Source of the DNA: Kiritimatiellia bacterium
GTDB lineage: Bacteria; Verrucomicrobiota; Kiritimatiellia; RFP12; UBA1067
Assembly: GCA_035449085.1 (NCBI GenBank)
Contig: DAOTKE010000001.1
Location: 1,232 to 65,231, forward strand
Direction of reading: 5' to 3'
DNA: 64,000 nucleotides
Shown: in pieces, positions 4,145-26,289 of the stretch
Numbering within the stretch: position 1 is the stretch's first letter
Layout: each line of letters begins with the position of its first letter
Made by a program: the position numbers and the translations under genes
The notes under the pieces: model-generated
The model's input: only the letters and a program-made list of their open reading frames with translations
The model's database searches: none
What the model was told of the DNA's origin: nothing

Positions 4145-7100
4145 ACGCCCACGACGGCCGCACCTGGATGCATATCACCAATGACGCGGTGGTTGTTTCG
4201 CGGAACGGGCTTTTTCTCGGACACCGCACCTATCAGAACAGCTTGGGACAGTCAGTCGGTCTATTGGATCTCACCTGTACCGCGCGCATGGAAGTCACGA
4301 ACAATGTGGTGCTCGGTGCGGGCCGCATGGGCGACACTTACGTCAATCTGTGCAACGAGGGCCGCATTGACATCCGCGACAACGCATCGTTCTATTCGCA
4401 CAATAACGTCAACTTCGGGAACACGCAATGCTCCACCGGCGTTGTGACGGTGGCTGGCCACGGCTCCTTCTCCGGCGCGGTCAATTTCTACATGGGGATG
4501 TCCTCGAACGCTGTGGGGCGTCTCGTGGTGCAGGACGATGCCTCAGTGTATTGCGGCGGTGTGCTCTACATGGGGAATGCGAAGCAGGCGCAGGGGTTTG
4601 TCATGCTCAAGGACCGCGCCACGCTTTCAATCAGTCCCGTCATCGGCAACTGGCTGTGTCTGGCGCCCAACCAACAGGACGCCCATGGCCGCTTTGAGGC
4701 GACGGACGACGCGGTGGTGACGCTCGGCAATGCGTCCTCGGTCGAGATGACGATGGGGGGCACCTCGCGCGCGGAACTCATCCTTTCGGGCAACGCGCAA
4801 TGGCTTGGCGGCACGGAAACAGCCGTCACGAACAAGAGCACGATCGTCGGGAACACGTCCGTCTCGCTTTCTTCCAACGCGCGTCTTTCCGTACGCGCCG
4901 TGTACGGCGGCTCGCCCGAGGATGGCTCGCCGGTGATGACGTTCACGGCGGACGGCGGCACGCTCACTTTTTCCGGCAATTCCATGCCGCCGGTTCCGTT
5001 CATGAGCGGGTGTGTGGCAAGGCTCGGCGCGAACGGCCTGACGGTCGATTCGAAGGGCTTTGCCATGACGTTCGATCAAGCGTTCACGGCGGTGGAAGGC
5101 GCCGCGTCCGCGACCTTCACGAAGACCGGTCATGGCACGCTCACGGTGACGCGTAACTCCTCGCACCCGCGGACCGTCCTCGCGCAGGGCGCGCTCGCAT
5201 TCGTGAATGCCGACTCGCGCTTCGGCAATGTGCTCGAAATCGCCGAAGGCGCGCGTCTTGTGCTCGCGGATCCCTCGGCGTCCATTGCGGCGGACGCGAT
5301 CACCTTTGAGGGTGACCTGCTGATCGACGTGCCGCCGGACTACACGCTCGATGCGATGCACGCAATCCTCGTGCTCGAGACGGCGCTTACAGCGGAGCAG
5401 TTGGCGAAAATTGCGGTGGGCAATCCGGCGAAAGGGCGGAACTATGCGTTCACCCTGAGCGAGGACGGGCGGACCGTGAGCGTGACGGTGACCGCGGCGA
5501 CCGCGGGTGCCTATACCTGGAGCGCCGGAACGGGGGCTTGGCATGTCTCCGACAACTGGACGCCGACGGGCGTGCCCACGCACAACGACGTGGCTACGGT
5601 GGCCTCGGGGGCCGAGATCGTGATGGACGCGGCGGGTATGGTGGGCTCGCTCGCCGTGGAGGGGACGGCCCCTGTGGCGGTCTCGGGCGATGAGACGCTT
5701 TACGTGGCGGAAAATATCTCCGTGGTTGCGGATGGTTCGCTCACGGTCTCCGCGCCGGTACGCAGCGCGTTGACGCTGGTGAAGGACGGCTCCGGCACGC
5801 TCACGTTGGCCGGCGCCAATCAGGCGACGATGTCCGGAGACTGGAGGCTCAACCGCGGCGTGACGGCGTTTGCCTCGGCTGCGGCGCTTGGCGCGGACTC
5901 TTCCAGCGACTCCGCGATCACGATCAGCAATTGCACGTTCCGCTACACGGGAGAGGCGGCGTCTATCCTGCGTCCGCTGCGCATCGCGGGCGACTACTGC
6001 GCGGTGCTGGACATCGTGGGCGACCTCACGTTCAACGGTGTGCAGGTCAACTATGACAACACGTCCGGCGGCGGCATCGTGAAGACGGGCGCGGGCACCC
6101 TGACGCTCAACGTGCCCGCAGGCACGACCTCCCTTTCCGTGCGCGGCGCGACGGGGCGCGGGAGCAATCAGGACGTGAGCGGTACGTTCGCGCCGTCGAA
6201 CGGCGAGGTCTCGAACTGGAATGGTTTGGGACAGTTCTCGGTCTTGGATGGCAAGGTGCTTATCCAGGGGAAAGGCAAGAGTGCCTCCACCGTGAGGCAG
6301 AAGCACCACGGTTCCGTTGGCGGTAGCGGCTGGAACACCACCGTGGCGCCGGAGCTTTACCTGAAGGATGTCACCTGCGAGATGGGTAGCGGCAGCGGGT
6401 TCCACACCCTCATGGACGTGCAGATCAAGCAGGGGAGCCCTGCCTCGAAGCTGATTCTTGACAACGCGAACCTCACGGCGAACGGCCTCTACGTCGGTCA
6501 CAGCAAACTGAGCGGCAACACCGACACGCCGAAACCGTTGCTCGCGATCACGAACAGTACACTGGACATCACTTGGCAGTTTACGGCGCCGAACAATAGC
6601 GGCATGGAGCCGGTGATTCGTATCGGCCCGGGGGGACTGTTGCGTCGCGCCAGCTCCACGGTGGCAGGCGGTGTGATGTTCAACCACAAGCTGGACGTGC
6701 GCGTGGAGGACGGCGGCGCGATCGAAGTGGCCTCGCCGCAGAACCTCTATCTGGGTAGTAGCGCTGCGGGCGATCTGGTTCTCGCAAACGGCGGGGGCAT
6801 GAAGGTGCACCGCTTCCTCGCGCGCAATGGCGGCACGACGGCGGCGGTCGCGTTCGATGGTGGCTATGCGCAGTTCACGCTGAACGGCGGCATCTCGACG
6901 GTGGTGAATCCCGCGACGACCTGTTTCCGCGCTGATGCGGGCGGTGGTGAACTTGTGGCCGCGGCGGGTGTTTCCCATGCCCTTGCGATTCCGCTACGTG
7001 GTACGGGCAGCTTCACAAAAACCGGGGCGGGCACACTCGTGTTCACAAATGACCTGAACGTTACAGTGGTGGACAATGTGCCTGTCTACTCGGAGTTGGA

Positions 7101-7512
7101 CTCGACGACGGTGAAGATCGCGAACGGTGGCGGTCTCAAGATCGCCGAGGGTACTGTGCGGTGTGTCGCGGGCACGACGGACGCCGCCAGCCGCTTTTCC
7201 GGCACGGGTACGCTCTCGGGCGCTTTCGGCACGCTCACACTCGATGTCGACGCAAACGCGACGAACGGCCTCACGTTCGCGGATCTCACGGCCGTGCAAG
7301 TGGTCGTCGACTTCGGGCGCACGGCCGCGAGCCCCGTTCCGGCAGGCGGCAGCGCGGTCGTCGCGAAGATCGGGGCAGGCACCTCGTTCACGGGTATGGG
7401 CTGGAAGGGTGTGAATCTCGGCTCCGACAGGGTGGCGGAGTTCCGGTGCGATGCGAATGGCGTCGTCACGGCGCATTTCCGCAGCACCGGCCTCGCGATG
7501 TATATCCGTTGA
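4141..7512 (+). CDS. Giant PATR (autotransporter-associated beta strand repeat) secreted protein, main body; continuation of 3458..4144 after an apparent frameshift
   Basis: 1123 aa. Repeated G-[ST]-G-T-L-T-L/V modules (TKTGHGTLTVT, VKDGSGTLTLAG, VKTGAGTLTLNV, TKTGAGTLVFTN). This frame is already open and protein-like from 3754 (STNDWWGSPFAANLTGAHVFNFES...) but has no start codon before the TTG at 4141. Confidence 0.7.
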   Translation: MNAHDGRTWMHITNDAVVVSRNGLFLGHRTYQNSLGQSVGLLDLTCTARMEVTNNVVLGAGRMGDTYVNLCNEGRIDIRDNASFYSHNNVNFGNTQCSTGVVTVAGHGSFSGAVNFYMGMSSNAVGRLVVQDDASVYCGGVLYMGNAKQAQGFVMLKDRATLSISPVIGNWLCLAPNQQDAHGRFEATDDAVVTLGNASSVEMTMGGTSRAELILSGNAQWLGGTETAVTNKSTIVGNTSVSLSSNARLSVRAVYGGSPEDGSPVMTFTADGGTLTFSGNSMPPVPFMSGCVARLGANGLTVDSKGFAMTFDQAFTAVEGAASATFTKTGHGTLTVTRNSSHPRTVLAQGALAFVNADSRFGNVLEIAEGARLVLADPSASIAADAITFEGDLLIDVPPDYTLDAMHAILVLETALTAEQLAKIAVGNPAKGRNYAFTLSEDGRTVSVTVTAATAGAYTWSAGTGAWHVSDNWTPTGVPTHNDVATVASGAEIVMDAAGMVGSLAVEGTAPVAVSGDETLYVAENISVVADGSLTVSAPVRSALTLVKDGSGTLTLAGANQATMSGDWRLNRGVTAFASAAALGADSSSDSAITISNCTFRYTGEAASILRPLRIAGDYCAVLDIVGDLTFNGVQVNYDNTSGGGIVKTGAGTLTLNVPAGTTSLSVRGATGRGSNQDVSGTFAPSNGEVSNWNGLGQFSVLDGKVLIQGKGKSASTVRQKHHGSVGGSGWNTTVAPELYLKDVTCEMGSGSGFHTLMDVQIKQGSPASKLILDNANLTANGLYVGHSKLSGNTDTPKPLLAITNSTLDITWQFTAPNNSGMEPVIRIGPGGLLRRASSTVAGGVMFNHKLDVRVEDGGAIEVASPQNLYLGSSAAGDLVLANGGGMKVHRFLARNGGTTAAVAFDGGYAQFTLNGGISTVVNPATTCFRADAGGGELVAAAGVSHALAIPLRGTGSFTKTGAGTLVFTNDLNVTVVDNVPVYSELDSTTVKIANGGGLKIAEGTVRCVAGTTDAASRFSGTGTLSGAFGTLTLDVDANATNGLTFADLTAVQVVVDFGRTAASPVPAGGSAVVAKIGAGTSFTGMGWKGVNLGSDRVAEFRCDANGVVTAHFRSTGLAMYIR

Positions 7513-7690: not shown

Positions 7691-7863
7691 CGCCCAACGG
7701 GTCCCCTTTTGAGATTTGGAGAGGTGCCCAGGCAAAAAAAGGCCGACCATAAACTATTTTTGGGGTGTTTTTTTCTGATGGCGGTCGGGAAAAATCTATG
7801 TAACATCTTGATAAAAGCCAATTTATGATTAATTTTCAGGGTGTGTCAAAACGTGATTTGCTA

Positions 7864-7913: not shown

Positions 7914-8393
7914 ATGTCTTTTGCGGGTGGACAGAGTGTGGCGGCGGCCGCCGGACCGGGATTACTGGTCGGGCGGTTTGACCACGCTTTGGACCCCAAG
8001 AAGCGGTTGACCGTGCCCTCGGGCTGGCGCGACCTGATGGGGTCACCGGCCTACGTGTATGTGTTTCCCGACCCGAATGAGCGGTGTCTGAACCTGATCC
8101 CTCCGGCAGAGATGGAGGGGCGGCTGGAGAAGTTGCGGCAGCGGTCGCTCTTCGACAAGCGCGCGGGCGAGGCGCTGAGGGTGTTCGGCGAGAATGCCGA
8201 GCAGGCGGTGCTGGACGTGCAGGGGCGGATCCGTATCCGGGATCGGCTGCTCGCCTTTGCCGGGCTGAGCAGCAAGGTGGTGATGATCGGCGCGATGAAC
8301 CGTGTCCAGATCTGGTCGCCTGAATTGCGGCCGGAATCGGAGACGGTGGATCAGGCGGCATTGGCCGCCGCGTGCGAGACCCTGGAGTTCTAG
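7914..8393 (+). CDS. mraZ: Transcriptional regulator MraZ
   Basis: GRFDHALDPKKRLTVPSGWRDLMG matches the MraZ N-terminal DxxxR/KGR repeat; a second repeat VQGRIRIRDRLL follows. ~150 aa. First gene of the dcw cluster. Start taken at ATG 7914; the ORF is open from TTG 7869. Confidence 0.7.
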   Translation: MSFAGGQSVAAAAGPGLLVGRFDHALDPKKRLTVPSGWRDLMGSPAYVYVFPDPNERCLNLIPPAEMEGRLEKLRQRSLFDKRAGEALRVFGENAEQAVLDVQGRIRIRDRLLAFAGLSSKVVMIGAMNRVQIWSPELRPESETVDQAALAAACETLEF

Positions 8394-8537
8394 CGGCGTC
8401 CGGCGGATGCCGGCGTGTGTTGACAAGTGATTTGGATCGCGGGCATGGCGTACCCGTCCGGAGGACGGACGCGTGTTCCAGGCGGGGCCGTTCTGCCGCG
8501 CGATCATTGTTTGGAATGGATTCAGTCTGGAGGGACG

Positions 8538-9488
8538 ATGCACCTGCCGGTGTTGCTGCAGGAGACGATGGACGCCCTGGCGGTGGTTCCCGGCGGCAGC
8601 TACATCGACGGAACACTCGGCGGTGCGGGCCACGCGGCGGAGATCCTGAGACGCGCGGGACCGGCCGGACGGTTGCTGGGGATCGACAAGGACGTGTCGG
8701 CCCTGGAGCGTTCGGCGGCGCGGCTGTCGGTGTTGTCTGGCGAGAAGGTGTTGGCGCACGGGGCTCATGGCGAGCTGCGGCGCCTGGCCGAGGCGAACGG
8801 GTTTGCGGCAGTGGACGGCGTGCTGTTGGACCTGGGCGTGTCATCCGATCAGCTCGACACGCCCGGGCGGGGGTTCAGCTTCCGGTTTGACGGACCCCTG
8901 GACATGCGCATGGATACGACTCGGGGGGAGTCGGCGGCCGACCTGCTGGCAAGGCTGGACGTGCAGTCCCTTGCAGACGTTTTTTGGAGGCTCGGCGAGG
9001 AGTCGCGCGCGCGGCGCATCGCGCAGGCGATCGTACACGCGCAGCGTCAGTCGCCGATCATGACGACCGGTCGGCTGGCGCAGGTGGTGGCGGATGCCGT
9101 GGGCGGACGCAGCGGGCCGCGGCATCCGGCGACGCGCGTGTTTCAGGCGTTGCGCATGGCGGTGAACCGGGAGCTGGAGGATTTGGAACAGGCGCTGGAG
9201 GACGGGTTGCAGCTCCTCAAGCCGGGCGGACGCATGGCGGTGATCACGTTTGAGAGCATCACCGACCGCCTGGTCAAGCAGCGGTTTGCGGCGCATGCGG
9301 GGCGTTGGGTCTCCCTGCAGCAGGGCGGCGAGCGCTGGGAAGGCGAGGAGCCGGCTGTGACGCGGGTGACGCGACACCCGGTGGAGGCGGGGCCCGAAGA
9401 GTTGGCGGCCAATCCCCGGGCGCGCTCGGCGAAATTGAGGGTCGTGCAGCGTTGCGAGACGCCGGTGCGCGGCGGAACGAAAGTGTGA
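8538..9488 (+). CDS. rsmH: 16S rRNA (cytosine1402-N4)-methyltransferase RsmH (MraW)
   Basis: MHLPVLLQETMDAL..GGSYIDGTLGGAGHA is the hallmark RsmH N-terminus. Lies downstream of mraZ. ATG 8538 with RBS GGAGGGACG. Confidence 0.9.
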   Translation: MHLPVLLQETMDALAVVPGGSYIDGTLGGAGHAAEILRRAGPAGRLLGIDKDVSALERSAARLSVLSGEKVLAHGAHGELRRLAEANGFAAVDGVLLDLGVSSDQLDTPGRGFSFRFDGPLDMRMDTTRGESAADLLARLDVQSLADVFWRLGEESRARRIAQAIVHAQRQSPIMTTGRLAQVVADAVGGRSGPRHPATRVFQALRMAVNRELEDLEQALEDGLQLLKPGGRMAVITFESITDRLVKQRFAAHAGRWVSLQQGGERWEGEEPAVTRVTRHPVEAGPEELAANPRARSAKLRVVQRCETPVRGGTKV

Positions 9489-9537
9489 CGGACAAACGAT
9501 TGGATGGAATGAACCACAGCCCACAGGAGGGTGTGCG

Positions 9538-9930
9538 ATGAGAAGGAATCGAAAAAAACAGGTGCATACGAAGGTGGTCCCCCGTTCGGTGGTCGGCATT
9601 TTTGTGCTGATGATCGGGCTGGCGCTGCTGTATTGGATGATGGATTCTAAATGCGACATGGACGGTCAGGAGATCCGCAAATACGAGCAGAAGCTGCAGG
9701 CGCTGGAAGCCGAATACGTGCGTGAAGAGGCGCGCTGGAACGAAAGAAACACGCCGGAGAAATTGGAAGAGGCGATGTTGCAGCATGGGATTGCCATGTC
9801 CTACCCGACTGCGGATCAGATCGTACGGATGGACGCGTCGGGGGTGCCGGTTCCGGGCCAACTCTCGATCGCCCGTTTCAAGCGTAGCCAGAGTGCGACA
9901 GAGCGTGTGGTCAAAGCAGTGCCGAAATAG
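9538..9930 (+). CDS. ftsL: Cell division protein FtsL-like (small bitopic membrane protein with coiled coil)
   Basis: 130 aa. N-terminal basic stretch, one TM helix (VVGIFVLMIGLALLYWMM), then a coiled coil. Sits between rsmH and ftsI, which is the conserved FtsL slot. Confidence 0.5.
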   Translation: MRRNRKKQVHTKVVPRSVVGIFVLMIGLALLYWMMDSKCDMDGQEIRKYEQKLQALEAEYVREEARWNERNTPEKLEEAMLQHGIAMSYPTADQIVRMDASGVPVPGQLSIARFKRSQSATERVVKAVPK

Positions 9931-9954
9931 TGCGGCGGAAGGTGACGTCGCGCC

Positions 9955-11664
9955 ATGCATGACCGCGGCATACAGATTCGCATCTGGCTGATTGCCCTGT
10001 CGCTGTTTTTGGCGTTTTGTGGTCTCGGGGCCAAGCTCTGTTATTTGCACCTTTCGAACCACTCAAAGGTGACAGGACGCGAATACAAGCGCGTCCTGCT
10101 GGGCTTGCGCGGCGGGATTTACGACTGCAACGGCAAGCAGTACCCCATGGCGGTCAGTCTGCCGGCACGCCTCTTCTATCTGGACCCGAAAGCGGTCAAG
10201 AAAGAGCACGACGTGAACCACATCGCGCGGACGGTGGCACAGCAACTGGATCTCTCCGAAGAGCATGTGCTGGCCCAGTTCAAACGCACGGATTCGCGGT
10301 ATATCAAGCTCGGGATCAGCCTGGAAGACAGCGTGTTTGCGGCGCTGTCCGACGAGAAGACGATCAGTGGCGTCGCCTCTGAGGAGATTGTCATCCGCCG
10401 TTATCCTCAAGGCAGGCGCATGTCGCATGTGCTGGGCTTCGTGAACAACATGGGTGTGGGCGGTGCCGGCATCGAACAGCAGTTCAACAGCTACCTGACA
10501 GGGACGCCCGGTCTGATCGAGGGCGAGAAGGACGCCGGGCGCCGCGAGATTTTCAGCCGCCGCAAAATCTATGTGCCGCCCATTCCTGGCTCGGACATCT
10601 TTCTGACGCTCGATCACCGCATCCAGTATGAGGTGGAACGTGCCATCCAGGAGGTGGTCGAGAAGTTTGACGCGCTTTCGGCATGGGCCATCGTGCAGCA
10701 CGTCAGCACCGGTAAAATTCTGGCGATGGCCTCCTATCCGGATTTCGAACCCGAGAACTACACGGAAACCACGATGGACGTCTGGCGCAACAATGCGCTG
10801 GCGATCGTTTATGAGCCGGGCTCGATCATGAAAGCGGTGACGGTGTCGGCTATCCTCAATGAAAGGATTGCCACGCCAGAGTCCGAATATGAAGTCGGCG
10901 AGGGGGTGTGGTTCTATGCCGGCAAGCCGCTTCGCGATCATGTTTATGGCCGCGTGACAGTGAGCACGGCGCTCAAGAAATCCAGCAACATCGCCTGCGC
11001 GAAGATGGGCCTTCAGCTCGGCCCGCAAAGGCTGGAAAGTTATTTGCGGGCCTTCAACTTCGGCAGCAAGCTGGGCATCGAACTGCCGGGTGAAGAGAGC
11101 GGCATTCTGGGAAAGGCCAAGCACTGGGATAAGCTCAAGCCAACGCGTGTGCCGATCGGACAAGGCATCGCGGTGACAGGACTCCAGATGATCAATGCGT
11201 ACTCCACCCTGGCCAATGACGGTCGCATGATGCGGCCGTACGTGGTGGATCGGATCGTGTCGCCCAGCGGCGAGGTCGTCATGCAGGCCAAGCCAGAGGT
11301 CATTGGCCGGCCGATCCGTCCCGAGGTGGCGCGTGCCGTGCGTAAGATGCTGATGGGCGTCACCGAAGAAGGGGGCACAGGCAAACGTGCTGCGGTCAGA
11401 GGTTTCTCCATCGGCGGTAAAACCGGCACGGCGCAGAAGGCGGTGCCGGGAGGATATTCGAGCACCGACTATTACGCCTCTTTTGTGGGTTTCGTGCCGG
11501 CCAGCAAGCCGGTCTTCAGTGTTCTGGTCTCCGTCGAACGGCCGCGTCCTCAACATACCGGCGGCTTTGTGTCGGCGCCGGTCTTCGCGCGGATCGCCGC
11601 CGCCACCGCGCGGTATCTTGGGCTAGAGCCGGATCAGCCGACGGACGAGGATGAGCCCGAATGA
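9955..11664 (+). CDS. ftsI: Peptidoglycan D,D-transpeptidase FtsI (class B penicillin-binding protein)
   Basis: 569 aa. N-terminal TM anchor. Transpeptidase motifs SIMK (SxxK), KSSN (SxN), KTGT. dcw position. Confidence 0.85.
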   Translation: MHDRGIQIRIWLIALSLFLAFCGLGAKLCYLHLSNHSKVTGREYKRVLLGLRGGIYDCNGKQYPMAVSLPARLFYLDPKAVKKEHDVNHIARTVAQQLDLSEEHVLAQFKRTDSRYIKLGISLEDSVFAALSDEKTISGVASEEIVIRRYPQGRRMSHVLGFVNNMGVGGAGIEQQFNSYLTGTPGLIEGEKDAGRREIFSRRKIYVPPIPGSDIFLTLDHRIQYEVERAIQEVVEKFDALSAWAIVQHVSTGKILAMASYPDFEPENYTETTMDVWRNNALAIVYEPGSIMKAVTVSAILNERIATPESEYEVGEGVWFYAGKPLRDHVYGRVTVSTALKKSSNIACAKMGLQLGPQRLESYLRAFNFGSKLGIELPGEESGILGKAKHWDKLKPTRVPIGQGIAVTGLQMINAYSTLANDGRMMRPYVVDRIVSPSGEVVMQAKPEVIGRPIRPEVARAVRKMLMGVTEEGGTGKRAAVRGFSIGGKTGTAQKAVPGGYSSTDYYASFVGFVPASKPVFSVLVSVERPRPQHTGGFVSAPVFARIAAATARYLGLEPDQPTDEDEPE

Positions 11665-13206
11665 ATGGGCGCGGCCGTAACTCTGTCTGCAGAAGAAAGG
11701 CATTTGATGAACTTAATGGAAATCCGGGAGTTGCTCCCGTTTTTGAAGGGGAAGCCACCCGCGCTGGCCTTCAGCGGTGTGCAGTGCGATTCGCGGCGAA
11801 TCAGGCCGGGTGACCTTTTTGTCGCGCTGAGCGGAAGCCGCGACGATGGTGCGCGTTATGCCGCCGCCGCGTTGGCCAAGGGTGCCGTCGCGGTGTTGGC
11901 GCAGGCACCGCTGCGGGAGGTGCCCTCCAAACAGATGGTTGTGGTCAACGATGCCCGCGGCGCGTTGGCTGGCCTCGCGGCTGCGGTCAATGGCTACCCT
12001 TCTCGGGCGCTCCGCGTGTATGGCGTTACCGGCACGAACGGCAAGACCACCACAGTCTGGCTGCTGCGCGAACTGTTGCACGCCGCCGGCCACACGCCCG
12101 GCTTGCTCTCCACCGTGCAGGTCGAGTACGGCGGCCGCACGATCCCGGCCACGCGCACTACGCCCGACGCTTGCGAACTGCAAGGTCTGCTGGCCGCAAT
12201 GCGGAGCACCGGTTGCGACTCGGCGGTGATGGAGGTCTCTTCCCATGCGTTGGATCAGCAGCGCACGGCATGCCTGTGTTTTGAGGCCGCCGCCTTCACC
12301 AACCTCTCGCAGGATCACCTCGATTACCACGGCACGATGGAGGCCTATTTCCAGACCAAGCAGCGTCTGTTCGCGCAGCTTGCGCAAGATCATCCCGGCG
12401 CGGCCGCGGTCTGTTGCCTCGATGAGGGACCGGGCTACGGCGCGCGCATGGCCGCGTACATCGCGACGTTGCCGCTGCGTTTGGTCACCTGCGGCTTCCC
12501 GCCGGGAGCCGATCTGCGCGCCGAGGCGGTGTCGGTGACGCCGGACGGCAGCCGCTTCACGCTGGTCACGCCGGATGGCGCCCGCCGCGAGCTGTGCGTT
12601 CATCTGGCCGGCCGCTACAACATCGCCAACATGCTGTGCGCGGCGGGACTCGCGCTCGATGCGGGTGTCCCGCTCGACACGGTGGCCGCGACGCTGGAGC
12701 AGGCGCGCCCGCAGTGGGGTCGTCTCGAGCGCGTGCGCACGGATTGGCCCGCCGCTGTGTTCGTGGATTACGCGCACACTGACGACGCGCTGCGCAACGT
12801 GCTCACGACGTTGCGCGAAATCACGCGCGGGCGGCTGACCGTCGTCTTCGGGTGCGGCGGAAACCGCGACCGCACGAAACGTCCGTTGATGGGGCGCGTC
12901 TGCGCCGAACTCGCCGATCGGCTGGTGGTGACCTCCGACAACCCGCGCGGTGAGGAACCGATGGCGATCATCAACCAGATTCTGGAAGGGGTGCCGGCAG
13001 GGACGGCGATGGCTGTCGAGCCCGACCGCCGGGCGGCCATCCGGCTGGTGCTGGCCGAGGCCGGGCCTGACGACGTGGTGCTCGTCGCGGGCAAGGGTCA
13101 CGAACCGTTTCAGGAACTCGCGGATCGTACCGTGCCGTTCGACGACCGTCAGGTTGTGGCGGAGGAGGCGAGTCAGTTAGCCGCAGCGCATCGTCAGTCC
13201 CGGTAG
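11665..13206 (+). CDS. murE: UDP-N-acetylmuramoyl-L-alanyl-D-glutamate--2,6-diaminopimelate ligase MurE
   Basis: 513 aa Mur ligase. GVTGTNGKTTT P-loop, DNPR motif. Position after ftsI. Confidence 0.9.
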   Translation: MGAAVTLSAEERHLMNLMEIRELLPFLKGKPPALAFSGVQCDSRRIRPGDLFVALSGSRDDGARYAAAALAKGAVAVLAQAPLREVPSKQMVVVNDARGALAGLAAAVNGYPSRALRVYGVTGTNGKTTTVWLLRELLHAAGHTPGLLSTVQVEYGGRTIPATRTTPDACELQGLLAAMRSTGCDSAVMEVSSHALDQQRTACLCFEAAAFTNLSQDHLDYHGTMEAYFQTKQRLFAQLAQDHPGAAAVCCLDEGPGYGARMAAYIATLPLRLVTCGFPPGADLRAEAVSVTPDGSRFTLVTPDGARRELCVHLAGRYNIANMLCAAGLALDAGVPLDTVAATLEQARPQWGRLERVRTDWPAAVFVDYAHTDDALRNVLTTLREITRGRLTVVFGCGGNRDRTKRPLMGRVCAELADRLVVTSDNPRGEEPMAIINQILEGVPAGTAMAVEPDRRAAIRLVLAEAGPDDVVLVAGKGHEPFQELADRTVPFDDRQVVAEEASQLAAAHRQSR

Positions 13207-13242
13207 TACCGGCAGTTCCGGATATCCAAAGCGGGTGCAAGC

Positions 13243-14637
13243 ATGTCAAACAGTCAACCACAGGTCTTTGACGCGGCGGCCTTTGCGGCGTGGGCGGGCG
13301 GCGAGGCACAGGCGTTGCCGCCAACCTTTTGCGGCGTGACGCAGGACACGCGGCAGGTGACGCCGGGCTGTCTTTATGTCGCGCTGCGCGGTGAGCGTTT
13401 CGACGGCCACGATTTTGTCGCGCAGGGCTTTGAGAAGGGGGCGGCGGCGGCGCTGGTGGAGCGGGCCTGGCAGGCCCCGGCGGAGGCCGCCGGATGGCCG
13501 TTGATCCGCGTGGCCGACACGCGGCGCGCGCTGGCCGATGCGGCCCGCGCTTGGCGGCTGCGGCAGCAGGCGCGTGTTGTGGGGATCACCGGCAGTTCCG
13601 GCAAAACGACCGTCAAAGAGATGACGGCGGCGCTCTGCGGCGGCGGGGGTGCGGTCTGTGCCACACGCGGCAACTTGAACAACGACATTGGGCTGCCGTT
13701 GAGCCTGCTGACGTTGGGCGCCGGGACGATGTATGGCATTTTCGAGGCCGGCACCAACCATCCGGGTGAAATCGCGGCGTTGGCCGATGTGATGCGTCCC
13801 GACATCGCGCTGATCTCCAGCATCGGCTCCGCGCACATTGAGCATTTCGGCTCACAGGAGGCGATCGCGTTGGAAAAGGGCGAGTTGTTGCGTGCGTTGC
13901 CTGCCGACGGTGCGGCGGTGCTCAGTCTTGAGACCGCCTGCGCGGATCGGTTGATCGCCTGTTCGGCGGCGCCGGTCGTGACGACCTCGCTGGTGACGCG
14001 CGCGGCGGATTATTTTGGTGAACCGTTGGATCTGTGGACGGGTCGCGTCCGGATCACGGAGCGTGCGACCGGCGAACAGATCGAGCTGTGTTGCGGGTTG
14101 CCCGGTGAGCACAACGCCTCGAACCTGTTGCTCGCGTTCGCTGCGGCGCGCACGGCCGGTGTGCCGGCGGCCGCGGCGGCGGCGGGACTCGCCAATCTGG
14201 TTCTTCCCGGTATGCGTTGGTCCGTGAGTGAGCGGGGGGGCGTCACGGTGGTGAATGACGCCTACAACGCCAATCCGCAGAGCATGCGCGCCGTGCTGCG
14301 CACCTTCATGCAGATGCCGTGCAACGGCCGACGGATCGCGGTGCTGGGCGACATGCTGGAACTGGGTGAACATACCGAGACGCTGCATCGCGAACTGGGG
14401 CGTGAGGTTGCGGCGTTGGCACCGGACGAAGTGATCGGCGTCGGCCCTGACACGTCGCGCTATATGGCGGACGAGGCGGTGATGCATGGGTATCCGGCGG
14501 CACGGATGACGTGCTGTGCGGACGCTGTGGCGGCGGCGGCGGTCGTGAGGGCGCGGGTGCGCGTCGGGGATAGCGTGTTGCTGAAAGCGTCGCGCGGGAT
14601 GCGATTGGAGCAGGTGCTGGATGCATGGACCGTATGA
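13243..14637 (+). CDS. murF: UDP-N-acetylmuramoyl-tripeptide--D-alanyl-D-alanine ligase MurF
   Basis: 464 aa Mur ligase. GITGSSGKTT P-loop. Position after murE. Confidence 0.9.
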   Translation: MSNSQPQVFDAAAFAAWAGGEAQALPPTFCGVTQDTRQVTPGCLYVALRGERFDGHDFVAQGFEKGAAAALVERAWQAPAEAAGWPLIRVADTRRALADAARAWRLRQQARVVGITGSSGKTTVKEMTAALCGGGGAVCATRGNLNNDIGLPLSLLTLGAGTMYGIFEAGTNHPGEIAALADVMRPDIALISSIGSAHIEHFGSQEAIALEKGELLRALPADGAAVLSLETACADRLIACSAAPVVTTSLVTRAADYFGEPLDLWTGRVRITERATGEQIELCCGLPGEHNASNLLLAFAAARTAGVPAAAAAAGLANLVLPGMRWSVSERGGVTVVNDAYNANPQSMRAVLRTFMQMPCNGRRIAVLGDMLELGEHTETLHRELGREVAALAPDEVIGVGPDTSRYMADEAVMHGYPAARMTCCADAVAAAAVVRARVRVGDSVLLKASRGMRLEQVLDAWTV

Positions 14638-16012
14638 TCAGGTGAATGCGCTCGTATTGGGCGCCGGGGCCAGCGGCGAGGCGGCGGCGCGGTTGCTGGC
14701 CGCGCGCGGCGGACATGTGCAGGTGCTGGATGAGGGCGACGGCGTGGCTTGCGCTGATGCGGCAGGACGGTTACGCGATGCCGGGATCACCGTGCGCTTC
14801 GGTGCTGGCGAATTGCCGGACGGACCGTCTGACGTGTGCGTCACAAGTCCGGGATTTGCCATGCGGCACCCTTGGATCGCAGCGTGTCGCGTGCGCGGTA
14901 TTCCCGTGATCTCAGAGCTTGAACTGGGCGCATGCTATTGGCCGGGACGCATCTTGGCCGTGACCGGCAGTAAGGGCAAAAGCTCTCTGGTCAAGCTTTG
15001 CGCGGACACGTTCAACGGTGCGGGCGTGACGGCGTCACCGGCCGGCAACTACGGGATCCCGCTCAGCAGATTGGCGTTGGAGCGGCCAGAGTTGCGCTGG
15101 GCGGTGACGGAGGTCAGTTCGTTCCAGATGGAGCACACGCGGACGTTCAGTCCGGATCTTGCGGTTCTGCTGAATCTTCAGGCGGATCACCTCGACCGTC
15201 ATGCTGACATGGCTGAGTACAAGGCGCTCAAATTGGCGGTGTTTGCGGCGATGCGTCCGGGCGGAGTCGCGTTGCTGCCGGCAGGGCTGTGGCATGAAGG
15301 ACGCATTCCGGAGGGTGTCAAGCTGTTGCGCTTCGGGACGGACGCGGCCTGTGACTGGACCTACGAAGACCATATTGTGACGGGAACATTTGAGGGTCGG
15401 GTCTGCAAGGTCGGGTTGCGTGGGAGCTGGTTTGACAATCCCGTCTTGGGTGTGGCCGCTGCCGCCGGTGTGGCGGCGCTGCTCCACGCGGGATTGGACG
15501 GTGAGCAGATTGCGGCCGGCCTGGCCGGGTTCGAACCGCTGGCCCACCGCATGCAGACGGTTGCCGTCAGCAGTCGGGGGGTTCGGTATGTCGATGACTC
15601 CAAGGCCACCAGTCTTTCGGCAACCGCTGCTGCGCTGCGGATGGCGCAGGGGCCGGTGCGTCTGATCGCGGGCGGGCTTCTCAAAGAAAAAGAGCTGGGC
15701 TGGGTAAAAGAGTTACTGACACAAACAACAAAAAAAGTGTATCTTATTGGGCAAAGCGCTGAGCAGATGTTTCAGGCGTGGTCAACGTCGGTTCCCTGTG
15801 AAGTTTGCGGTACACTCGATCAGGCTGTCGATGCCGCCCAGCGGGAAGCGCTACCAGGGGAAATCGTGCTGCTGTCGCCGGGAACAGCCAGCTTTGATCA
15901 ATTTACCAGCTATCGGGAAAGAGGAGAACGTTTCACAGAACGGGTCCGTGCGGTTGCGGATCTTGATGTGCGTTTCTTTTCTGAGGGCAAGAAGGACAAG
16001 GAGACACAATGA
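14621..16012 (+). CDS. murD: UDP-N-acetylmuramoylalanine--D-glutamate ligase MurD
   Basis: 463 aa. N-terminal Rossmann LVLGAGASGEAAARLL, GSKGKSS P-loop, NLQADHLDRH. Overlaps murF by 17 nt. Confidence 0.85.
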   Translation: MHGPYDQVNALVLGAGASGEAAARLLAARGGHVQVLDEGDGVACADAAGRLRDAGITVRFGAGELPDGPSDVCVTSPGFAMRHPWIAACRVRGIPVISELELGACYWPGRILAVTGSKGKSSLVKLCADTFNGAGVTASPAGNYGIPLSRLALERPELRWAVTEVSSFQMEHTRTFSPDLAVLLNLQADHLDRHADMAEYKALKLAVFAAMRPGGVALLPAGLWHEGRIPEGVKLLRFGTDAACDWTYEDHIVTGTFEGRVCKVGLRGSWFDNPVLGVAAAAGVAALLHAGLDGEQIAAGLAGFEPLAHRMQTVAVSSRGVRYVDDSKATSLSATAAALRMAQGPVRLIAGGLLKEKELGWVKELLTQTTKKVYLIGQSAEQMFQAWSTSVPCEVCGTLDQAVDAAQREALPGEIVLLSPGTASFDQFTSYRERGERFTERVRAVADLDVRFFSEGKKDKETQ

Positions 16013-17043
16013 ATCGTCAAGTCATGCGTGTAGCAGCGGGTGCGAATTTGGTGGCGGGATGCCTCCTGCTGCAGGGGTGCGGTATGTTTGGGAAGCCCAA
16101 AGACCATACCGTGAGTGAAGTGCCGGACGGCGATCTGCCTCCGGTCGAGGTGCAGGCTTTAGAGCCGGTCGCGACGGTTGAACCGGCACCCGTGGTGGAA
16201 ACGGCTCCCGTCGCTCTGCCGACCGTGCCGAGCACGACGCCCTACACGATTCAGAAGGGCGACACGATTTCCGCGGTGGCCTACAAGTACAATCTGCGCT
16301 GGCAGGATGTGGTGGCCGTCAACCCCGGAATCTCGCCGAACCGCCTGCGTGTCGGACAAGTCATCCAGCTCCCGGGCCAGGTGGATCTGAGCCAGGTGCG
16401 CGCGCTGCCGTCGACGACGCCGAAAGCTCACCGCGTGAGCGCACCCAAGGTGTCCGCGCCGAAGACGGCGAAGAGTGAGGTGTCGGGCCCTGCTATCACC
16501 TACGTGGTCAAGCCGGGCGATTCGCTCTCCGTGATCGCCCACCGGCATGGCGTTAAGGTGGCCGACATTCGTGCGGCAAACGGATTGAAGGGGGATAAGA
16601 TTATTGTTGGTCAGAAACTGAAGATCGTGGGTGCGACCAAGACGCCCGCAGCGGCGCCTGCGACTGCGGCTTCCGCTGCCACCGCGCCGAAGATGGCTGC
16701 GCCCAAGGCCGCGACAAAGCCCCGTGCGGCCGTTGCGACGCCGCCGCCTGCTCCTGCTCCCGCGCCTGCGCCGGCCCCGGCTCCGGCTGTCACCGAAGCT
16801 GCCGCACCCGCCGCGCCGGTCGAGAGTGCGGCTGTGAAGGTGGAGACCGCAGCTCCCGCGCCGGTGCCTGCTCCGGCCGCCGAGCCGAATGTCCAGACCT
16901 ACACGGTCAAGGAGGGCGAGGATCTGTATGCGGTCGCGATCCGCTGGGGGGTGAGCCCGAGCGATCTGAAGGCGCTGAATAACCTGACCGGTTCGGAGCT
17001 GAAGGCGGGCACCGTCCTGAAGATTCCCGGTGGCGTGAAATAG
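16009..17043 (+). CDS. LysM-domain lipoprotein (3 LysM repeats, Pro/Ala-rich linker) embedded in the dcw cluster
   Basis: Lipobox LLLQGCG. Three LysM motifs (YTIQKGDTISAVA.., YVVKPGDSLSVIA.., YTVKEGEDLYAVA..). (PA)n linker encoded by CCNGCN hexamer repeats. ATGA overlap with murD stop. Confidence 0.8.
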   Translation: MNRQVMRVAAGANLVAGCLLLQGCGMFGKPKDHTVSEVPDGDLPPVEVQALEPVATVEPAPVVETAPVALPTVPSTTPYTIQKGDTISAVAYKYNLRWQDVVAVNPGISPNRLRVGQVIQLPGQVDLSQVRALPSTTPKAHRVSAPKVSAPKTAKSEVSGPAITYVVKPGDSLSVIAHRHGVKVADIRAANGLKGDKIIVGQKLKIVGATKTPAAAPATAASAATAPKMAAPKAATKPRAAVATPPPAPAPAPAPAPAPAVTEAAAPAAPVESAAVKVETAAPAPVPAPAAEPNVQTYTVKEGEDLYAVAIRWGVSPSDLKALNNLTGSELKAGTVLKIPGGVK

Positions 17044-17058
17044 CGAGAGGTCGAGGAC

Positions 17059-18207
17059 ATGCGTAAGACGTTGATGGCGTTGGCACTCATCGTCCTCTCG
17101 CTGCTCGGTTTCGGAATTGTTCTGCTGGCGACGGCCAGCGCAGTGCGGGCGCAAGGTCTTTACGGCGACCCGCACTTTTTTGTTAACCGCCAGTTGATGT
17201 GGATGGCTTTGGCGCTTGGCGTGGCGTGGCTTGCCGCCCGGTTTGACTACCATTGGTGGAAAGAGACGCCAGCGCTGAGCATCGGCTTCTATCTGCTGGT
17301 GGCGTTGGCACTGGTGCTGGTTTTCGCGCCGGTGATCGGCGTCAAAGTCAAGGGCAGTTACCGCTGGATCGGCCTGGGGCCGCTACGCGTGCAGCCGAGT
17401 GAGCTCGCCAAGATCATGACGGTGGTGGTGATGAGCGTCTGGATGGACCGGATCGGGCGCTGCGTGCGTCAGTTCTGGAAAGGCGCGGTCTTTCCGGTTC
17501 TTGGTCTCGGCGTGATTGCCGCCCTCCTCGTGGCCGAACCGGATTTCGGTGCGACGATTGTGGTCTGCGTGGTCGGCGGTCTGCTGATGTTCGTGGCCGG
17601 TGCCCGGTTGCTTTACCTGAGCTTGTTTGGCGCCGGCGGGGTTGCGCTGGTCGGCTGTTTCGTGCTCACCAATGCCAACCGTATGGAGCGTATCAGGGCC
17701 TGGTTACACGGCGAGGGAAGCGATTCGTCGGCCGCCTATCAGTTGAAGCAGGCGCTGATCGCCTTTGAGAACGGTGGGCCGTGGGGGGTGGGCTTCAACC
17801 AGAGCATCCAGAAGTACAACTATCTGCCGGAAGCGCACACCGATTTCATCTTCGCGATCGGTGGTGAAGAGTTCGGCTTCCTGTTTTCAATGGGCGTCTT
17901 GCTGGCCTTCGTAGGGATCCTCGCGTGCGGCATTTACATTAGCCTGCGCGCCCCGGACCGTCTCGGCCGCATGCTGGCCTTCGGCATGACGGTGCTGCTG
18001 GTCTTCCAGGCGGCATTCAACATCGGCGTGGTCACCGGGTGTCTGCCGACCAAAGGACTGGCCCTGCCTTTCATGAGTTACGGCGGCACGAACCTGGTCA
18101 CCGCGATGCTGGCGGTGGGCACCCTGATCAACATTGGGCGGCATGTCGATGTGTTCGACGAACGGCTGCACACGCAGGTCGTCAAAAATGCGACGATCAA
18201 GCTGTAG
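17059..18207 (+). CDS. ftsW: Peptidoglycan glycosyltransferase FtsW (SEDS family)
   Basis: 382 aa, ~10 TM helices. SEDS motifs QPSELAK, PEAHTDFIF, LPFMSYGG. Confidence 0.85.
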   Translation: MRKTLMALALIVLSLLGFGIVLLATASAVRAQGLYGDPHFFVNRQLMWMALALGVAWLAARFDYHWWKETPALSIGFYLLVALALVLVFAPVIGVKVKGSYRWIGLGPLRVQPSELAKIMTVVVMSVWMDRIGRCVRQFWKGAVFPVLGLGVIAALLVAEPDFGATIVVCVVGGLLMFVAGARLLYLSLFGAGGVALVGCFVLTNANRMERIRAWLHGEGSDSSAAYQLKQALIAFENGGPWGVGFNQSIQKYNYLPEAHTDFIFAIGGEEFGFLFSMGVLLAFVGILACGIYISLRAPDRLGRMLAFGMTVLLVFQAAFNIGVVTGCLPTKGLALPFMSYGGTNLVTAMLAVGTLINIGRHVDVFDERLHTQVVKNATIKL

Positions 18208-18359: not shown

Positions 18360-18480
18360 AAATAGCAGCGAGGGAAAAAACGAAGGTGCCCGATTCTCGC
18401 TTGACGAATGTGGTCACATGAGGCTACATTATGGCATGAAAAAGCAGAACCACAAGTATCCGCCGCAGAAAGCTGGAGCG

Positions 18481-18714
18481 ATGATTGCCGTTCGCGAGGC
18501 CAAGTCGCAGTTCTCGGCGTTGGTGGAGCGTGCGGCAGGGGGTGAGGAGATCATCATCACCTGGCATGGCCGTCCCAGGGCTCGGATGCTGCCTGTCGAT
18601 GAACCGCGAGGCAGGCTCCGTGTGGATCGGAGATGGCTCGAAAATATGCCAATAACCCATGCGACGAAAACGGTCGAAATTTTGGTGCGTGAGGATCGCG
18701 ATAATCGGGGGTAG
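18481..18714 (+). CDS. Type II antitoxin, Phd/YefM family
   Basis: MIAVREAKSQFSALVERAAGGEEIIITWHGRPRARMLP matches the Phd/YefM consensus. RBS GGAG 5 nt upstream. Stop 2 nt before the PIN toxin gene. Confidence 0.7.
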   Translation: MIAVREAKSQFSALVERAAGGEEIIITWHGRPRARMLPVDEPRGRLRVDRRWLENMPITHATKTVEILVREDRDNRG

Positions 18715-18716
18715 CG

Positions 18717-19178
18717 ATGTACGTGGACAGTGCCATCCTCGTCAAGTTGGTCGTACGGGAGCCCGACAGTCTTTTCTACGTCCAACTGCTGGAAAAATCT
18801 TCCGACCTGCGATCTTCGGAACTCGCCGTGACAGAGTGCCGCTCCGTTCTGGAGCGAAAGTGCCGCGAGGGAGAGCTGGGCGAAGCGACCCGAGATGGCG
18901 CTTGGCGTCGCCTCGGGACATATTGGCAGCGAGGCGGTGGGATTGTCCTTCACCCCGTTACACGTCTCGTCCTTGAAGAAGCTGGCGCGATGATCGCAGA
19001 ATGTATCGCCTCCGTGCCATTAAGGGCGCTCGATGCGATTCATCTCGCGACGTGTCGTCTTCACGGCGCGGTTCCGCTTGTCACCAGCGACCGGGTCATG
19101 CGGCAGGCGGCCCGTCATCTCGGCATTCCGTTGTCCGATCTTCCCGGCGCACCAGGGCTGCCCCTGATGACCCCGTAG
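18717..19178 (+). CDS. vapC: Type II toxin VapC (PIN-domain ribonuclease)
   Basis: 153 aa. PIN acidic residues (MYVDSAIL.., ..ELAVTE.., ..LDAIHLA.., ..TSD..). Immediately downstream of the antitoxin. Confidence 0.75.
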   Translation: MYVDSAILVKLVVREPDSLFYVQLLEKSSDLRSSELAVTECRSVLERKCREGELGEATRDGAWRRLGTYWQRGGGIVLHPVTRLVLEEAGAMIAECIASVPLRALDAIHLATCRLHGAVPLVTSDRVMRQAARHLGIPLSDLPGAPGLPLMTP

Positions 19179-20953: not shown

Positions 20954-22228
20954 CTATTCGTGCCGCAGGGCGGTGAGCGGATCGAGCTGGGCGGCTTTCC
21001 AGGCCGGATGCGTTCCGAAGGTGATGCCGGTGATCACGGAGACCGCCAGAGCGACGATCAGTGACTCGGAGGTCACCACCGCCTTGAGGCCGGCCTCGCC
21101 GCCCATGCGCGAGATCCACTCGGCGGTGGCAGCCGTCGCGATGCCCAGCCCCGCGCCGAGTCCGCCGCCGATCGAGGTCAGCAGGACCGATTCGGCGAGA
21201 AACTGCCACAGGATGTCGCGCTTACGCGCGCCTAGCGCCCGCCGCACGCCGATCTCGCGTGTCCGTTCGAAAATGTTGGCGAGCATGATGTTCATGATGC
21301 CGATGCCGCCCACCAGCAGGGAGATGGCGGCGATCGACGTCATCACCACGGTGAAGATGCGCTGCGTGCGGCGCGCGCTCTGCAAGAGTTCATAGGGGAC
21401 CTGCACCTCATAGTCAACCTGCGCGTGCGCCTCGCGCAGATAGGTGCGCAACCGGCCGGCCGTGCCGGGGATCGCGTCGATGTTTTTCGCCGCGAGATAG
21501 AGAAAGTCATAATCCACCTTTTCGGCCATGCCGCGACGCATCTGGACGGTGATGCCGCCCCACAGCGAAGTGGCCGTTTCGATCGGCATGCAGACGAGGT
21601 TGTTGAGCTCAAGCTGACCTCCGATACGGCCGCCTCCGGGGCTTTCCATCAAACCGACAACACGGAACGAAATGTTACCGATCACCACGGTCTGCCCGAG
21701 CGGGTCGCGGTGGCCGAAGAGCCGGCGCGCGGCCTTGACGCCGACCACGCAGACCGGATCCAGGATCTTGCCGTCGGTTGGCGCCAGAAAGCGGCTGCGA
21801 CGGTCCACCAGCCGACAGCGGGAGACTTCCAGAAACGCCGGGGTGGTGGCGACGGCCTTGATGTCGGTGGACATCTGTCCCAGAAAAATCTCGCGGCGCA
21901 CCTCCATGACCGGCACGATCAGCCGCACATTTTCAAAGACGCGCTCGATGTGTTCCACATCGCGTTGCGTGATGCCGTACCGCTGCGTGAAGGAGCGCGT
22001 GGTCTGCTGAGCGTTCCCTTCCGCGGGTTTGACCGAACGCAGGATGATGTTATCGACACCTTGTGATTCGATCTGACGCAAGGCCTCGCGCCGCCCGCCT
22101 TCACTGATGGCCAGCATGGCCACGACCGCCGCGATGCCCAGCACGATGCCGAGCGTGGCCAGCAGCGACCGCACCAGATGGCGCGTCAGGCTGGCGTAAA
22201 CGGTCCGGGCCATTTCCAGCGGATTCAT
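20954..22228 (-). CDS. ABC transporter permease, MacB/FtsX-like (4-TM with large periplasmic domain)
   Basis: 424 aa. N-terminal TM, ~250-aa periplasmic domain, C-terminal 3 TM FtsX-like module. Downstream of the ATPase 22225..22932. Confidence 0.8.
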   Translation of the reverse strand: MNPLEMARTVYASLTRHLVRSLLATLGIVLGIAAVVAMLAISEGGRREALRQIESQGVDNIILRSVKPAEGNAQQTTRSFTQRYGITQRDVEHIERVFENVRLIVPVMEVRREIFLGQMSTDIKAVATTPAFLEVSRCRLVDRRSRFLAPTDGKILDPVCVVGVKAARRLFGHRDPLGQTVVIGNISFRVVGLMESPGGGRIGGQLELNNLVCMPIETATSLWGGITVQMRRGMAEKVDYDFLYLAAKNIDAIPGTAGRLRTYLREAHAQVDYEVQVPYELLQSARRTQRIFTVVMTSIAAISLLVGGIGIMNIMLANIFERTREIGVRRALGARKRDILWQFLAESVLLTSIGGGLGAGLGIATAATAEWISRMGGEAGLKAVVTSESLIVALAVSVITGITFGTHPAWKAAQLDPLTALRHE

Positions 22229-22932
22229 GCTTCGCTGGCCCTCCCGTCATGGATCGTGACGGCCTGCGTGGCGTAGACGCGGTAGGCCGGATTATGCGTC
22301 ACCATGATGATGGTCTTGCCGCTGCGATGCAGCTCCTGGAAAATGCCCAGCACTTCCAGCCCGGTTTTCTCGTCGAGATTCCCGGTGGGCTCATCGGCCA
22401 GGATGACGGGCGGATCGTTGGCGAGCGCGCGCGCGATGGCGACGCGCTGGCACTGCCCGCCCGAGAGCTGGGTGGGGCGCGAGTGGTAACGGCCGCCCAG
22501 TCCGAAACGGTCTAACAGCTCTTTGGCCCGTTTACGCATGACCGAGCGCGGAATGCCCGCGTACTGCATCGGGACGCAGACGTTCTCCAGGATCGTCAGA
22601 TGAGACAGCAGATTGAAGGATTGAAAAACCATGCCGATCATCTTGCAGCGCACCGCCGACGTGGCGTCGTCGTTGAGTCTCGACACTTCACGGCCCTCCA
22701 ACAGGTAGGTTCCGGCGGTGGGGCGCATCAGCAGTCCGAAGAGATTCAGCAGGGTCGATTTGCCCGAGCCGGAAGGGCCCATCACGGTCAGGAATGCGCC
22801 GTGCCTGACGATGAGGTCAGTTGGACGCAAAGCATAGATCTGTGTGCCGCCGGCCTCGTACGTTTTGGCCAGCCCGCGCAGTTCGATCAACGGCGCTTGC
22901 GGTGGCGGCGAATGGGGGTGTGCGTCACTCAT
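22225..22932 (-). CDS. ABC transporter ATP-binding protein (MacB/LolD-like)
   Basis: Walker [10 protein letters not shown], signature [15 protein letters not shown], Walker [12 protein letters not shown]. Confidence 0.9.
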
Positions 22933-24773: not shown

Positions 24774-24782
24774 ATCCGTTTT

Positions 24783-26285: not shown

Positions 26286-26289
26286 GGCA

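Follow-up and report, generated by a model that had tools for sequence, protein, structure and literature searches.

In the 64,000-nucleotide stretch of Kiritimatiellia DNA analysed here (the window), a shortened division and cell wall (dcw) gene cluster carries, between murD and ftsW, a gene for a 344-residue lipoprotein with three LysM domains. Comparison of gene order in relatives indicates that this LysM gene is a conserved, long-standing member of the dcw operon across the whole lineage. The cluster has no mraY. The same comparison indicates that the insertion of the LysM gene and the absence of mraY are separate events, the LysM gene being the older and more widespread feature. Regarding its function, we hold with slightly better than even confidence that the product is a peptidoglycan-binding lipoprotein, a multivalent adaptor for new (septal) peptidoglycan that is made together with septal wall synthesis. 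The gene is a candidate cell-division factor.

Nine closely packed genes occupy 7.9-18.2 kb of the plus strand in the order mraZ-rsmH-ftsL-ftsI-murE-murF-murD-LysM-ftsW (Table 1). An earlier note, made from the letters of this DNA, had read the cluster in this order, and the open reading frames (ORFs) and the gene families, assigned with Pfam and NCBIfam, agree with it. Compared with the canonical dcw cluster, which in Escherichia coli extends from mraZ to ftsZ, the first six genes (mraZ to murF) have the same order and orientation on one strand, and murD lies ahead of ftsW in both. The window differs in lacking mraY between murF and murD, in the extra LysM gene between murD and ftsW and in the absence of murG-murC-(murB)-ddl-ftsQ-ftsA-ftsZ after ftsW, the cluster's last gene. 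With E. coli MurG, MurC, DdlB, FtsQ, FtsA and FtsZ as tblastn queries, the corresponding genes were not found in the 64-kb window, nor was this murG-to-ftsZ half found in the related loci described below; as a control, the same queries recovered all their targets in the E. coli locus L006. Several metagenomes from anaerobic digesters, as well as NCBI assembly GCA_035452385.1, contain contigs identical to the window, and since these come from several samples (JGI, ENA and NCBI) the arrangement is not unique to one assembly. On the identical public contigs mraZ is annotated as a protein of 159 amino acids starting at 7914 and rsmH as one of 316; the true start of rsmH is likely 8538. The FtsL-like gene keeps the same position in relatives. 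Directly after ftsW a gene pair encoding a Phd/YefM antitoxin (PF02604) and a PIN toxin (PF01850) at 18418-19178 (+) marks the end of the operon; a promoter-like match precedes it at 18401-18430.

The junctions on either side of murD are tight. The stop codon of murF (TGA, 14635-14637) falls within the murD ORF, which begins with ATG at 14621, and the only alternative murD start is a GTG at 14642; there is consequently no space for an mraY of 1.1 kb. Between murD and the LysM gene there is an ATGA overlap (16009-16012) with AAGGAG six bases before it, and 15 nucleotides (nt) including a GAGG motif separate the stop of the LysM gene from the start of ftsW. A promoter-like hexamer pair, about 265 nt ahead of the start of the LysM gene, could, as a consensus match, represent an internal promoter.

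Conservation of the arrangement was assessed in three independent samplings. For the first, conditioned on MurD, a MurD alignment was searched against one genome per GTDB species. It gave 79 loci, all with a MurD of Kiritimatiellota type; 77 of them were assessable, with a contig long enough past murD. These loci are diverse, their MurD being 40-87% identical to that of the window, their GC content ranging from 39 to 72% and their flanking genes differing. In 73 of the 77 the next ORF after murD encodes three LysM domains. The genes upstream of murD vary, with a full mraZ-to-murF series in about 35 loci, murF alone in some and unrelated genes in many, and the murD-LysM-ftsW triplet is retained even at loci whose upstream genes are gone. 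The second sampling, a metagenome scan conditioned on the LysM gene, yielded 80 loci; wherever the contig extends, murD stands upstream and ftsW downstream (80/80, with zero counter-examples). The presence of the LysM gene in the dcw clusters of relatives, which the earlier note had made the touchstone of its reading, was thereby confirmed by synteny. The third sampling, conditioned on MraY, consists of context look-ups in seven lineages including locus L156 and is described below. Over the three samplings the LysM lipoprotein gene was found after murD in about 160 loci; the same gene order in so many independent loci is not due to chance. murD and the LysM gene overlap by ATGA in 20 loci, and in most of the remainder they abut or are less than 50 nt apart. 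The spacer between the LysM gene and ftsW has a median of about 18 nt and measures 15-20 nt in most loci. The packing is tight throughout and therefore operon-like. Homologues of the LysM protein with a source name are labelled Kiritimatiellia or Kiritimatiellae, some metagenome-assembled genomes being loosely labelled "Verrucomicrobia" or "Lentisphaerae"; the organism of the window is accordingly assigned to the phylum Kiritimatiellota of the Planctomycetes-Verrucomicrobia-Chlamydiae (PVC) group.

In a few lineages the LysM gene and ftsW are separated by a further ORF. In termite-gut Kiritimatiellota this is a second, smaller gene (L041 2411-3028, L052 6418-6990; also L131 and L132), whose product of about 200 amino acids has an N-terminal hydrophobic segment and two C-terminal LysM domains, an architecture resembling the description of chlamydial NlpD.

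Loci that retain mraY reveal its former place. One LysM-conditioned metagenome locus, L156, reads mraY-murD-LysM-ftsW. Its MraY, used as a query, led to 120 close MraY clusters, and for six of them the genomic context was read. All six show mraZ-rsmH-ftsL-ftsI-murE-murF-(small ORF)-mraY-murD; five continue to LysM-ftsW, where the cluster ends, and the contig of the sixth, L174, stops within murD. The murD-LysM-ftsW triplet thus accompanies mraY in L156, L172, L176, L178, L182 and L183, and L174 is consistent with this up to its contig end. In the loci containing mraY the LysM proteins are built as in the window, with an xQGC-GTT-type lipobox followed by three LysM domains (two in L176). The small ORF between murF and mraY encodes 64-67 amino acids without a Pfam match (L174 9768-9971, L178 7039-7233; also L180 and L181).

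In a neighbour-joining tree of MurD rooted with E. coli, coarse though clear in its signal, the loci containing mraY are basal and all loci without it fall into one clade, which includes the window and lineages with a solitary murD. Among the 47 mraY-less loci having both murF and murD, the projected junction is -17 nt in 33, the largest gap is 132 nt and none has room for mraY. Since the basal relatives have murF-mraY-murD-LysM-ftsW, the LysM gene predates the loss of mraY from the cluster. On the simplest history, the common ancestor already had the LysM gene in this place, and a single later excision took mraY out of the operon at the base of a large clade.

Concerning the present whereabouts of mraY, tblastn searches of the 64-kb window with the MraY of E. 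coli and with seven MraY proteins of Kiritimatiellota (E. coli control positive) found no match, in keeping with the claim that murF and murD overlap directly, here by 17 nt, without mraY. On the identical public contigs, which end about 1.6 kb beyond the right edge of the window, the 10 kb preceding it likewise yielded no mraY, and the same queries detected none less than 10 kb from murD in 79 species. An apparent match in L021 (2263-3132) proved to be a WecA/MraY-like GT4 fragment (FNFPPAKIFMGDSGSL) in frame after codons 1-195 of ftsW; this ftsW-GT4 fusion was rejected as most likely a chimera, the contig being a 3.1-kb co-assembly product. In a published survey MraY is likely present in all genomes of the PVC group (PMC5147048), and the dcw genes are reported to be highly conserved in Kiritimatiellota (PMC12283558). 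On the strength of these surveys relocation of mraY is much likelier than loss, and the gene is presumably encoded elsewhere in the genomes of this clade.

The LysM protein combines a lipoprotein signal with three peptidoglycan-binding modules. Its N-terminus, MNRQVMRVAAGANLVAGCLLLQGC-GMFGK, is strongly conserved and comprises an n-region with Arg3 and Arg7, a hydrophobic helix (residues 3-21) and the lipobox L-L-Q-G-C24. Comparison of 59 diverse orthologues shows no variation at G23 and C24 and at least 90% conservation of Q22. Cys18 is not invariant, so that Cys24 is the predicted lipidation site; from this signal the protein is predicted to be exported and lipid-modified at Cys24. By the E. 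coli sorting rule, which may not apply in this phylum, the glycine at residue +2 would probably direct it to the outer membrane. The earlier note had described a 344-residue lipoprotein with three LysM domains and a (PA)n linker, joined to murD by ATGA; this description stands, with three PF01476 matches and a (PA)7 run. The domains belong to the LysM family of modules of about 44 amino acids with a beta-alpha-alpha-beta fold. An AlphaFold2 model, run with a 45-sequence alignment, contains the signal helix (residues 3-21) and three such folds with a predicted local distance difference test (pLDDT) score of about 90; the remainder scores below 50, and no folded region besides the LysM domains is present in the model. 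The predicted template modelling score of 0.27 means that the domains have no fixed arrangement. Orthologues agree almost completely in the LysM domains, above all in the third, and differ freely in the Pro/Ala-rich linkers. LysM modules bind the glycan backbone of peptidoglycan, which contains N-acetylglucosamine. By analogy with the domain family, we infer that the protein binds peptidoglycan glycan multivalently.

No M23/LytM, NlpC/P60 or other catalytic domain, no SPOR domain and no further domain apart from LysM was found in the protein by searches of Pfam, NCBIfam and PDB sequences. The statement that it has no peptidase domain was thus upheld, hidden Markov models (Pfam, NCBIfam) and AlphaFold2 agreeing on three LysM domains without M23 or NlpC. 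PDB sequence matches concern LysM modules only, the best being LytE (8i2e, E = 3.5e-24). Orthologues form at least 120 clusters at 90% identity. When 1.84 billion representative proteins were searched with HMMER, the full-length, colinear matches formed about 26 clusters at 50% identity, with members of 300-370 amino acids each. The other high-scoring matches were set aside as unrelated proteins with 6-15 LysM repeats; orthologues are single-stretch matches of 300-370 amino acids. In gut-lineage orthologues (L082 6836-7888; L085 3119-4111) a Cys-rich motif, e.g. CTCPAGAKHTEPCACGAADCRCE, lies in the linker ahead of the first LysM domain; it is missing from other family members.

Table 1. Positions in the window of the dcw cluster genes, of sequence signals around them and of the parts of the LysM lipoprotein.
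Feature	Position	Strand	Basis
mraZ	7914-8393	+	PF02381, TIGR00242; ORF open from 7869
rsmH (mraW)	8427-9488	+	TIGR00006, 303 bits
FtsL-like small protein	9538-9930	+	weak PF19579 FtsL_2 match, 20 bits, under cut-off
ftsI (class B penicillin-binding protein)	9955-11664	+	PBP_dimer and Transpeptidase domains
murE	11665-13206	+	NF001124, 520 bits, above cut-off
murF	13243-14637	+	TIGR01143, 410 bits, model positions 2-417/418
murF/murD overlap of 17 nt, usual mraY site	14621-14637	+	direct sequence reading
murD	14621-16012	+	TIGR01087, 313 bits, model positions 2-440/441
LysM lipoprotein gene (344 amino acids, three LysM)	16009-17043	+	PF01476, three matches, 143 bits vs cut-off 20.9
ftsW (SEDS glycan polymerase)	17059-18207	+	TIGR02614, 342 bits, above cut-off
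Sigma-70-like promoter match upstream of mraZ, candidate Pmra	7800-7829	+	consensus scan 9/12, pattern match only
Promoter-like hexamer pair inside 3' end of murD	15716-15745	+	consensus match only
Predicted signal peptide and lipobox L-L-Q-G-C24	16009-16080	+	orthologue conservation, AlphaFold2 helix
LysM domain 1, residues 76-122	16234-16374	+	Pfam; AlphaFold2, pLDDT about 90
LysM domain 2, residues 162-207	16492-16629	+	Pfam, AlphaFold2
(PA)7 run, residues 247-260, disordered linker between LysM 2 and 3	16747-16788	+	sequence; pLDDT <50
LysM domain 3, residues 295-340, most conserved part	16891-17028	+	Pfam, alignment, AlphaFold2

The closest precedent comes from Chlamydiae, members of the PVC group, whose "NlpD" (that of Waddlia chondrophila, Chlamydia pneumoniae Cpn0902, Chlamydia trachomatis CT759) is a secreted LysM-only protein. 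It has no LytM domain, is encoded inside a cell-wall/division gene cluster, is septal in dependence on wall synthesis and binds the sacculus through LysM (PMC4083446, PMC4083426). The window protein is likewise LysM-only and its gene likewise lies inside a cell-wall/division cluster. The two differ in that the chlamydial protein has two C-terminal LysM domains behind a signal or transmembrane segment, whereas the window protein is a lipobox lipoprotein with three; enzymatic activity has been reported for the chlamydial protein, and its gene cluster continues to murG, whereas the cluster in the window ends at ftsW. The chlamydial gene order, which we take to be murF-mraY-murD-nlpD-ftsW-murG, would place nlpD in the same slot as the LysM gene of basal Kiritimatiellota. 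The locus of the window is most aptly seen as a dcw operon that houses a gene for a LysM-only lipoprotein, in analogy to Chlamydiae, and from which mraY has been removed in one clade. The suggestion that the protein is specific to the lineage holds in one sense only: it is so by detectable sequence homology, the full-length matches listed in profile searches being of Kiritimatiellota type only, but a septal LysM-only protein encoded in a cell-wall cluster was already known from Chlamydiae (PMC4083446, PMC4083426).

Other known systems share parts of this architecture. E. coli NlpD, an outer-membrane lipoprotein and AmiC activator, has in common with the window protein its lipoprotein nature, LysM and low-complexity linkers; in NlpD the N-terminal LysM domain serves septal targeting. 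It activates the amidase through a degenerate LytM domain, which is missing here (NF008123 scores 35.9 bits vs a cut-off of 311), and E. coli nlpD lies outside the dcw cluster, whereas the LysM gene lies inside. Caulobacter DipM (four LysM plus LytM) also uses several LysM repeats, which direct this periplasmic factor to the division site; unlike the window protein it ends in a LytM domain and is no lipoprotein, and DipM models score 46-70 bits on the window protein against cut-offs of 740-900. Tandem LysM domains with low-complexity linkers are found in Bacillus subtilis LytE and Enterococcus faecalis AtlA as well, but these carry a catalytic domain (NlpC/P60 or glucosaminidase), which the window protein lacks, and are not lipoproteins. 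The models of LytM-type amidase activators (family members NlpD, EnvC, ActS and DipM) that match the window protein, namely those of NlpD, ActS and DipM, do so through LysM only and stay far under their cut-offs. The earlier note's suggestion of an amidase activator is accordingly rejected, because the LytM domain is absent and the AlphaFold2 model consists of LysM folds and disordered linkers. Nor does the protein resemble the SPOR-domain binders FtsN, DedD and DamX, no SPOR domain being detected with Pfam or NCBIfam. The other role suggested in the note, that of a septal peptidoglycan tether, is plausible from the sequence.

We propose the following model. The cluster in the window would be a shortened, derived dcw operon; its ancestor would have read mraZ-rsmH-ftsL-ftsI-murE-murF-mraY-murD-LysM-ftsW, with the murG-to-ftsZ half elsewhere. 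A single removal of mraY in the clade of the window would have left murF and murD overlapping by 17 nt. The LysM precursor would be exported, lipidated at Cys24 and sorted, probably, to the outer membrane, from where three LysM modules on long disordered Pro/Ala-rich linkers would grip the backbone of new glycan. With its gene coupled translationally to murD and followed after 15 nt by ftsW, the protein would be made in step with lipid II synthesis and with the septal glycan polymerase FtsW-FtsI; we infer co-transcription of the gene and septal action of its product. At the septum it might fasten the outer membrane to the wall as this grows inwards, gather wall-remodelling partners, or both, and so do the same job as the LysM modules in NlpD, DipM and the LysM-only chlamydial "NlpD".

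Several points weigh against a septal adaptor. Lipoproteins with LysM domains are generic binders of the wall, and not every gene of a dcw cluster has a direct role in division, rsmH being an example. Orthologue alignment and the AlphaFold2 model revealed no conserved non-LysM motif or hidden domain besides the lipobox and hence no obvious surface for protein-protein interaction. The mraY gene of this clade was not located in the window, in the 10 kb to its left or in the murD neighbourhoods. In four species (L060, L061, L062, L065) murD is solitary, between genes for a TPR protein and an aminotransferase (neighbourhood in this sub-lineage: TPR protein, murD, aminotransferase, Maf), and in the neighbouring lineage L063 the gene after murD-LysM encodes a CHASE/PAS hybrid histidine kinase and is not ftsW; these five loci show further erosion of the cluster. 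A protein of so plain a design might also be a general envelope tether, linking outer membrane and sacculus all round the cell as Lpp, Pal and OmpA do and keeping its dcw place for dosage with wall synthesis. We regard this as a minor though real possibility. Such a tether would have the parts present here, a lipid anchor and multivalent modules for peptidoglycan binding joined by long flexible linkers, and no more than these; no non-LysM motif is conserved; and L063 keeps the LysM gene with murD after ftsW has moved away. Yet the slot immediately upstream of ftsW is held in about 150 loci though the rest of the cluster has eroded, and LysM is a known septal-targeting device in NlpD, DipM and chlamydial NlpD (PMC4083446).

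The adjoining ftsW, with its spacer of 15-20 nt in most loci, would also suit a trigger comparable to FtsN, in which LysM in place of SPOR senses septal peptidoglycan and activates FtsW-FtsI; no SPOR or FtsN-type gene was found in the cluster with Pfam and NCBIfam. We consider this unlikely, as the protein has no conserved short non-LysM motif comparable to the essential FtsN segment and, were it an outer-membrane lipoprotein, would lie far from the inner-membrane synthase. Somewhat less probable still is a cryptic wall-modifying enzyme, a carboxypeptidase or endopeptidase, for which C. pneumoniae Cpn0902 would be the model: Cpn0902 is reported to have DD-carboxypeptidase activity in vitro, removing the terminal D-Ala from lipid II, and Waddlia NlpD expressed in E. 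coli reportedly gives effects of a peptidoglycan peptidase type (PMC4083426, PMC4083446). In the window protein, however, the regions beyond the three LysM folds are predicted to be disordered and are unconserved, there is no match to a peptidase family in Pfam, NCBIfam or PDB, and the likeness to the chlamydial protein is established for the LysM domains only. To an artefact, either mis-assembly that removed mraY or a LysM ORF that is not a real gene, we attach practically no weight. The junction without mraY recurs in 47 independent assemblies, in 33 of them at -17 nt, which settles the concern that mraY was simply lost from this assembly; identical contigs come from JGI, ENA and NCBI samples; and the LysM ORF has a normal GC content at third codon positions and hundreds of conserved orthologues.

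The rest of the window contains genes of other kinds. Large secreted proteins with beta-strand repeats of the PATR/autotransporter type are encoded at 4141-7512 (+), directly upstream of mraZ, and at 33689-35809 (+). A minus-strand region at 20954-27758, with a MacB-type permease and ATPase followed by DUF4340, ABC_transp_aux (GldG-like) and an ABC ATPase, looks like two ABC export systems. A 1388-residue protein encoded at 48647-52813 (+) combines TPR repeats with TMEM260_N, a domain related to protein O-mannosyltransferases; the next gene encodes a 557-residue protein without a family match. By ARAGORN and Rfam gathering thresholds, tRNA-Gly (CCC) at 2929-3002 (-) is the sole RNA gene of the window.

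Members of the PVC group differ in their division genes and envelopes: FtsZ is missing in some, the dcw cluster is eroded in some and the wall is unusual in some. The diversification of the division machinery in this group is the context of the finding, which by itself overturns nothing. Published PVC surveys record which classical division genes are present or absent and do not mention the LysM gene, and our literature search retrieved no publication pairing LysM with Kiritimatiellota or treating it together with murD, ftsW and the dcw cluster. The chlamydial parallel suggests that the LysM gene may be older than the class. In Verrucomicrobium spinosum an unnamed gene, VSP_RS19445, is essential by transposon-directed insertion site sequencing and has a tag number between those of mraY (VSP_RS19455) and murG (VSP_RS19435) (PMC12283558, Data S5); it adjoins the re-tagged murD and ftsW and could be the gene in the murD-ftsW slot. 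A doubtful but far-reaching extension is that the murD-ftsW LysM protein is an ancestral, possibly essential divisome component of the PVC group, orthologous to chlamydial NlpD and perhaps to VSP_RS19445. If this were true, outer membrane or wall remodelling would be coupled to FtsW-FtsI in lineages without LytM activators, and Kiritimatiellota would keep the free-living lipoprotein form. The removal of mraY provides a synapomorphy-like marker of a large Kiritimatiellia clade and would, alone, be a minor genomic curiosity. A LysM gene that holds its place between murD and ftsW across the class despite the breakup of the cluster offers a concrete candidate for a division or envelope factor.

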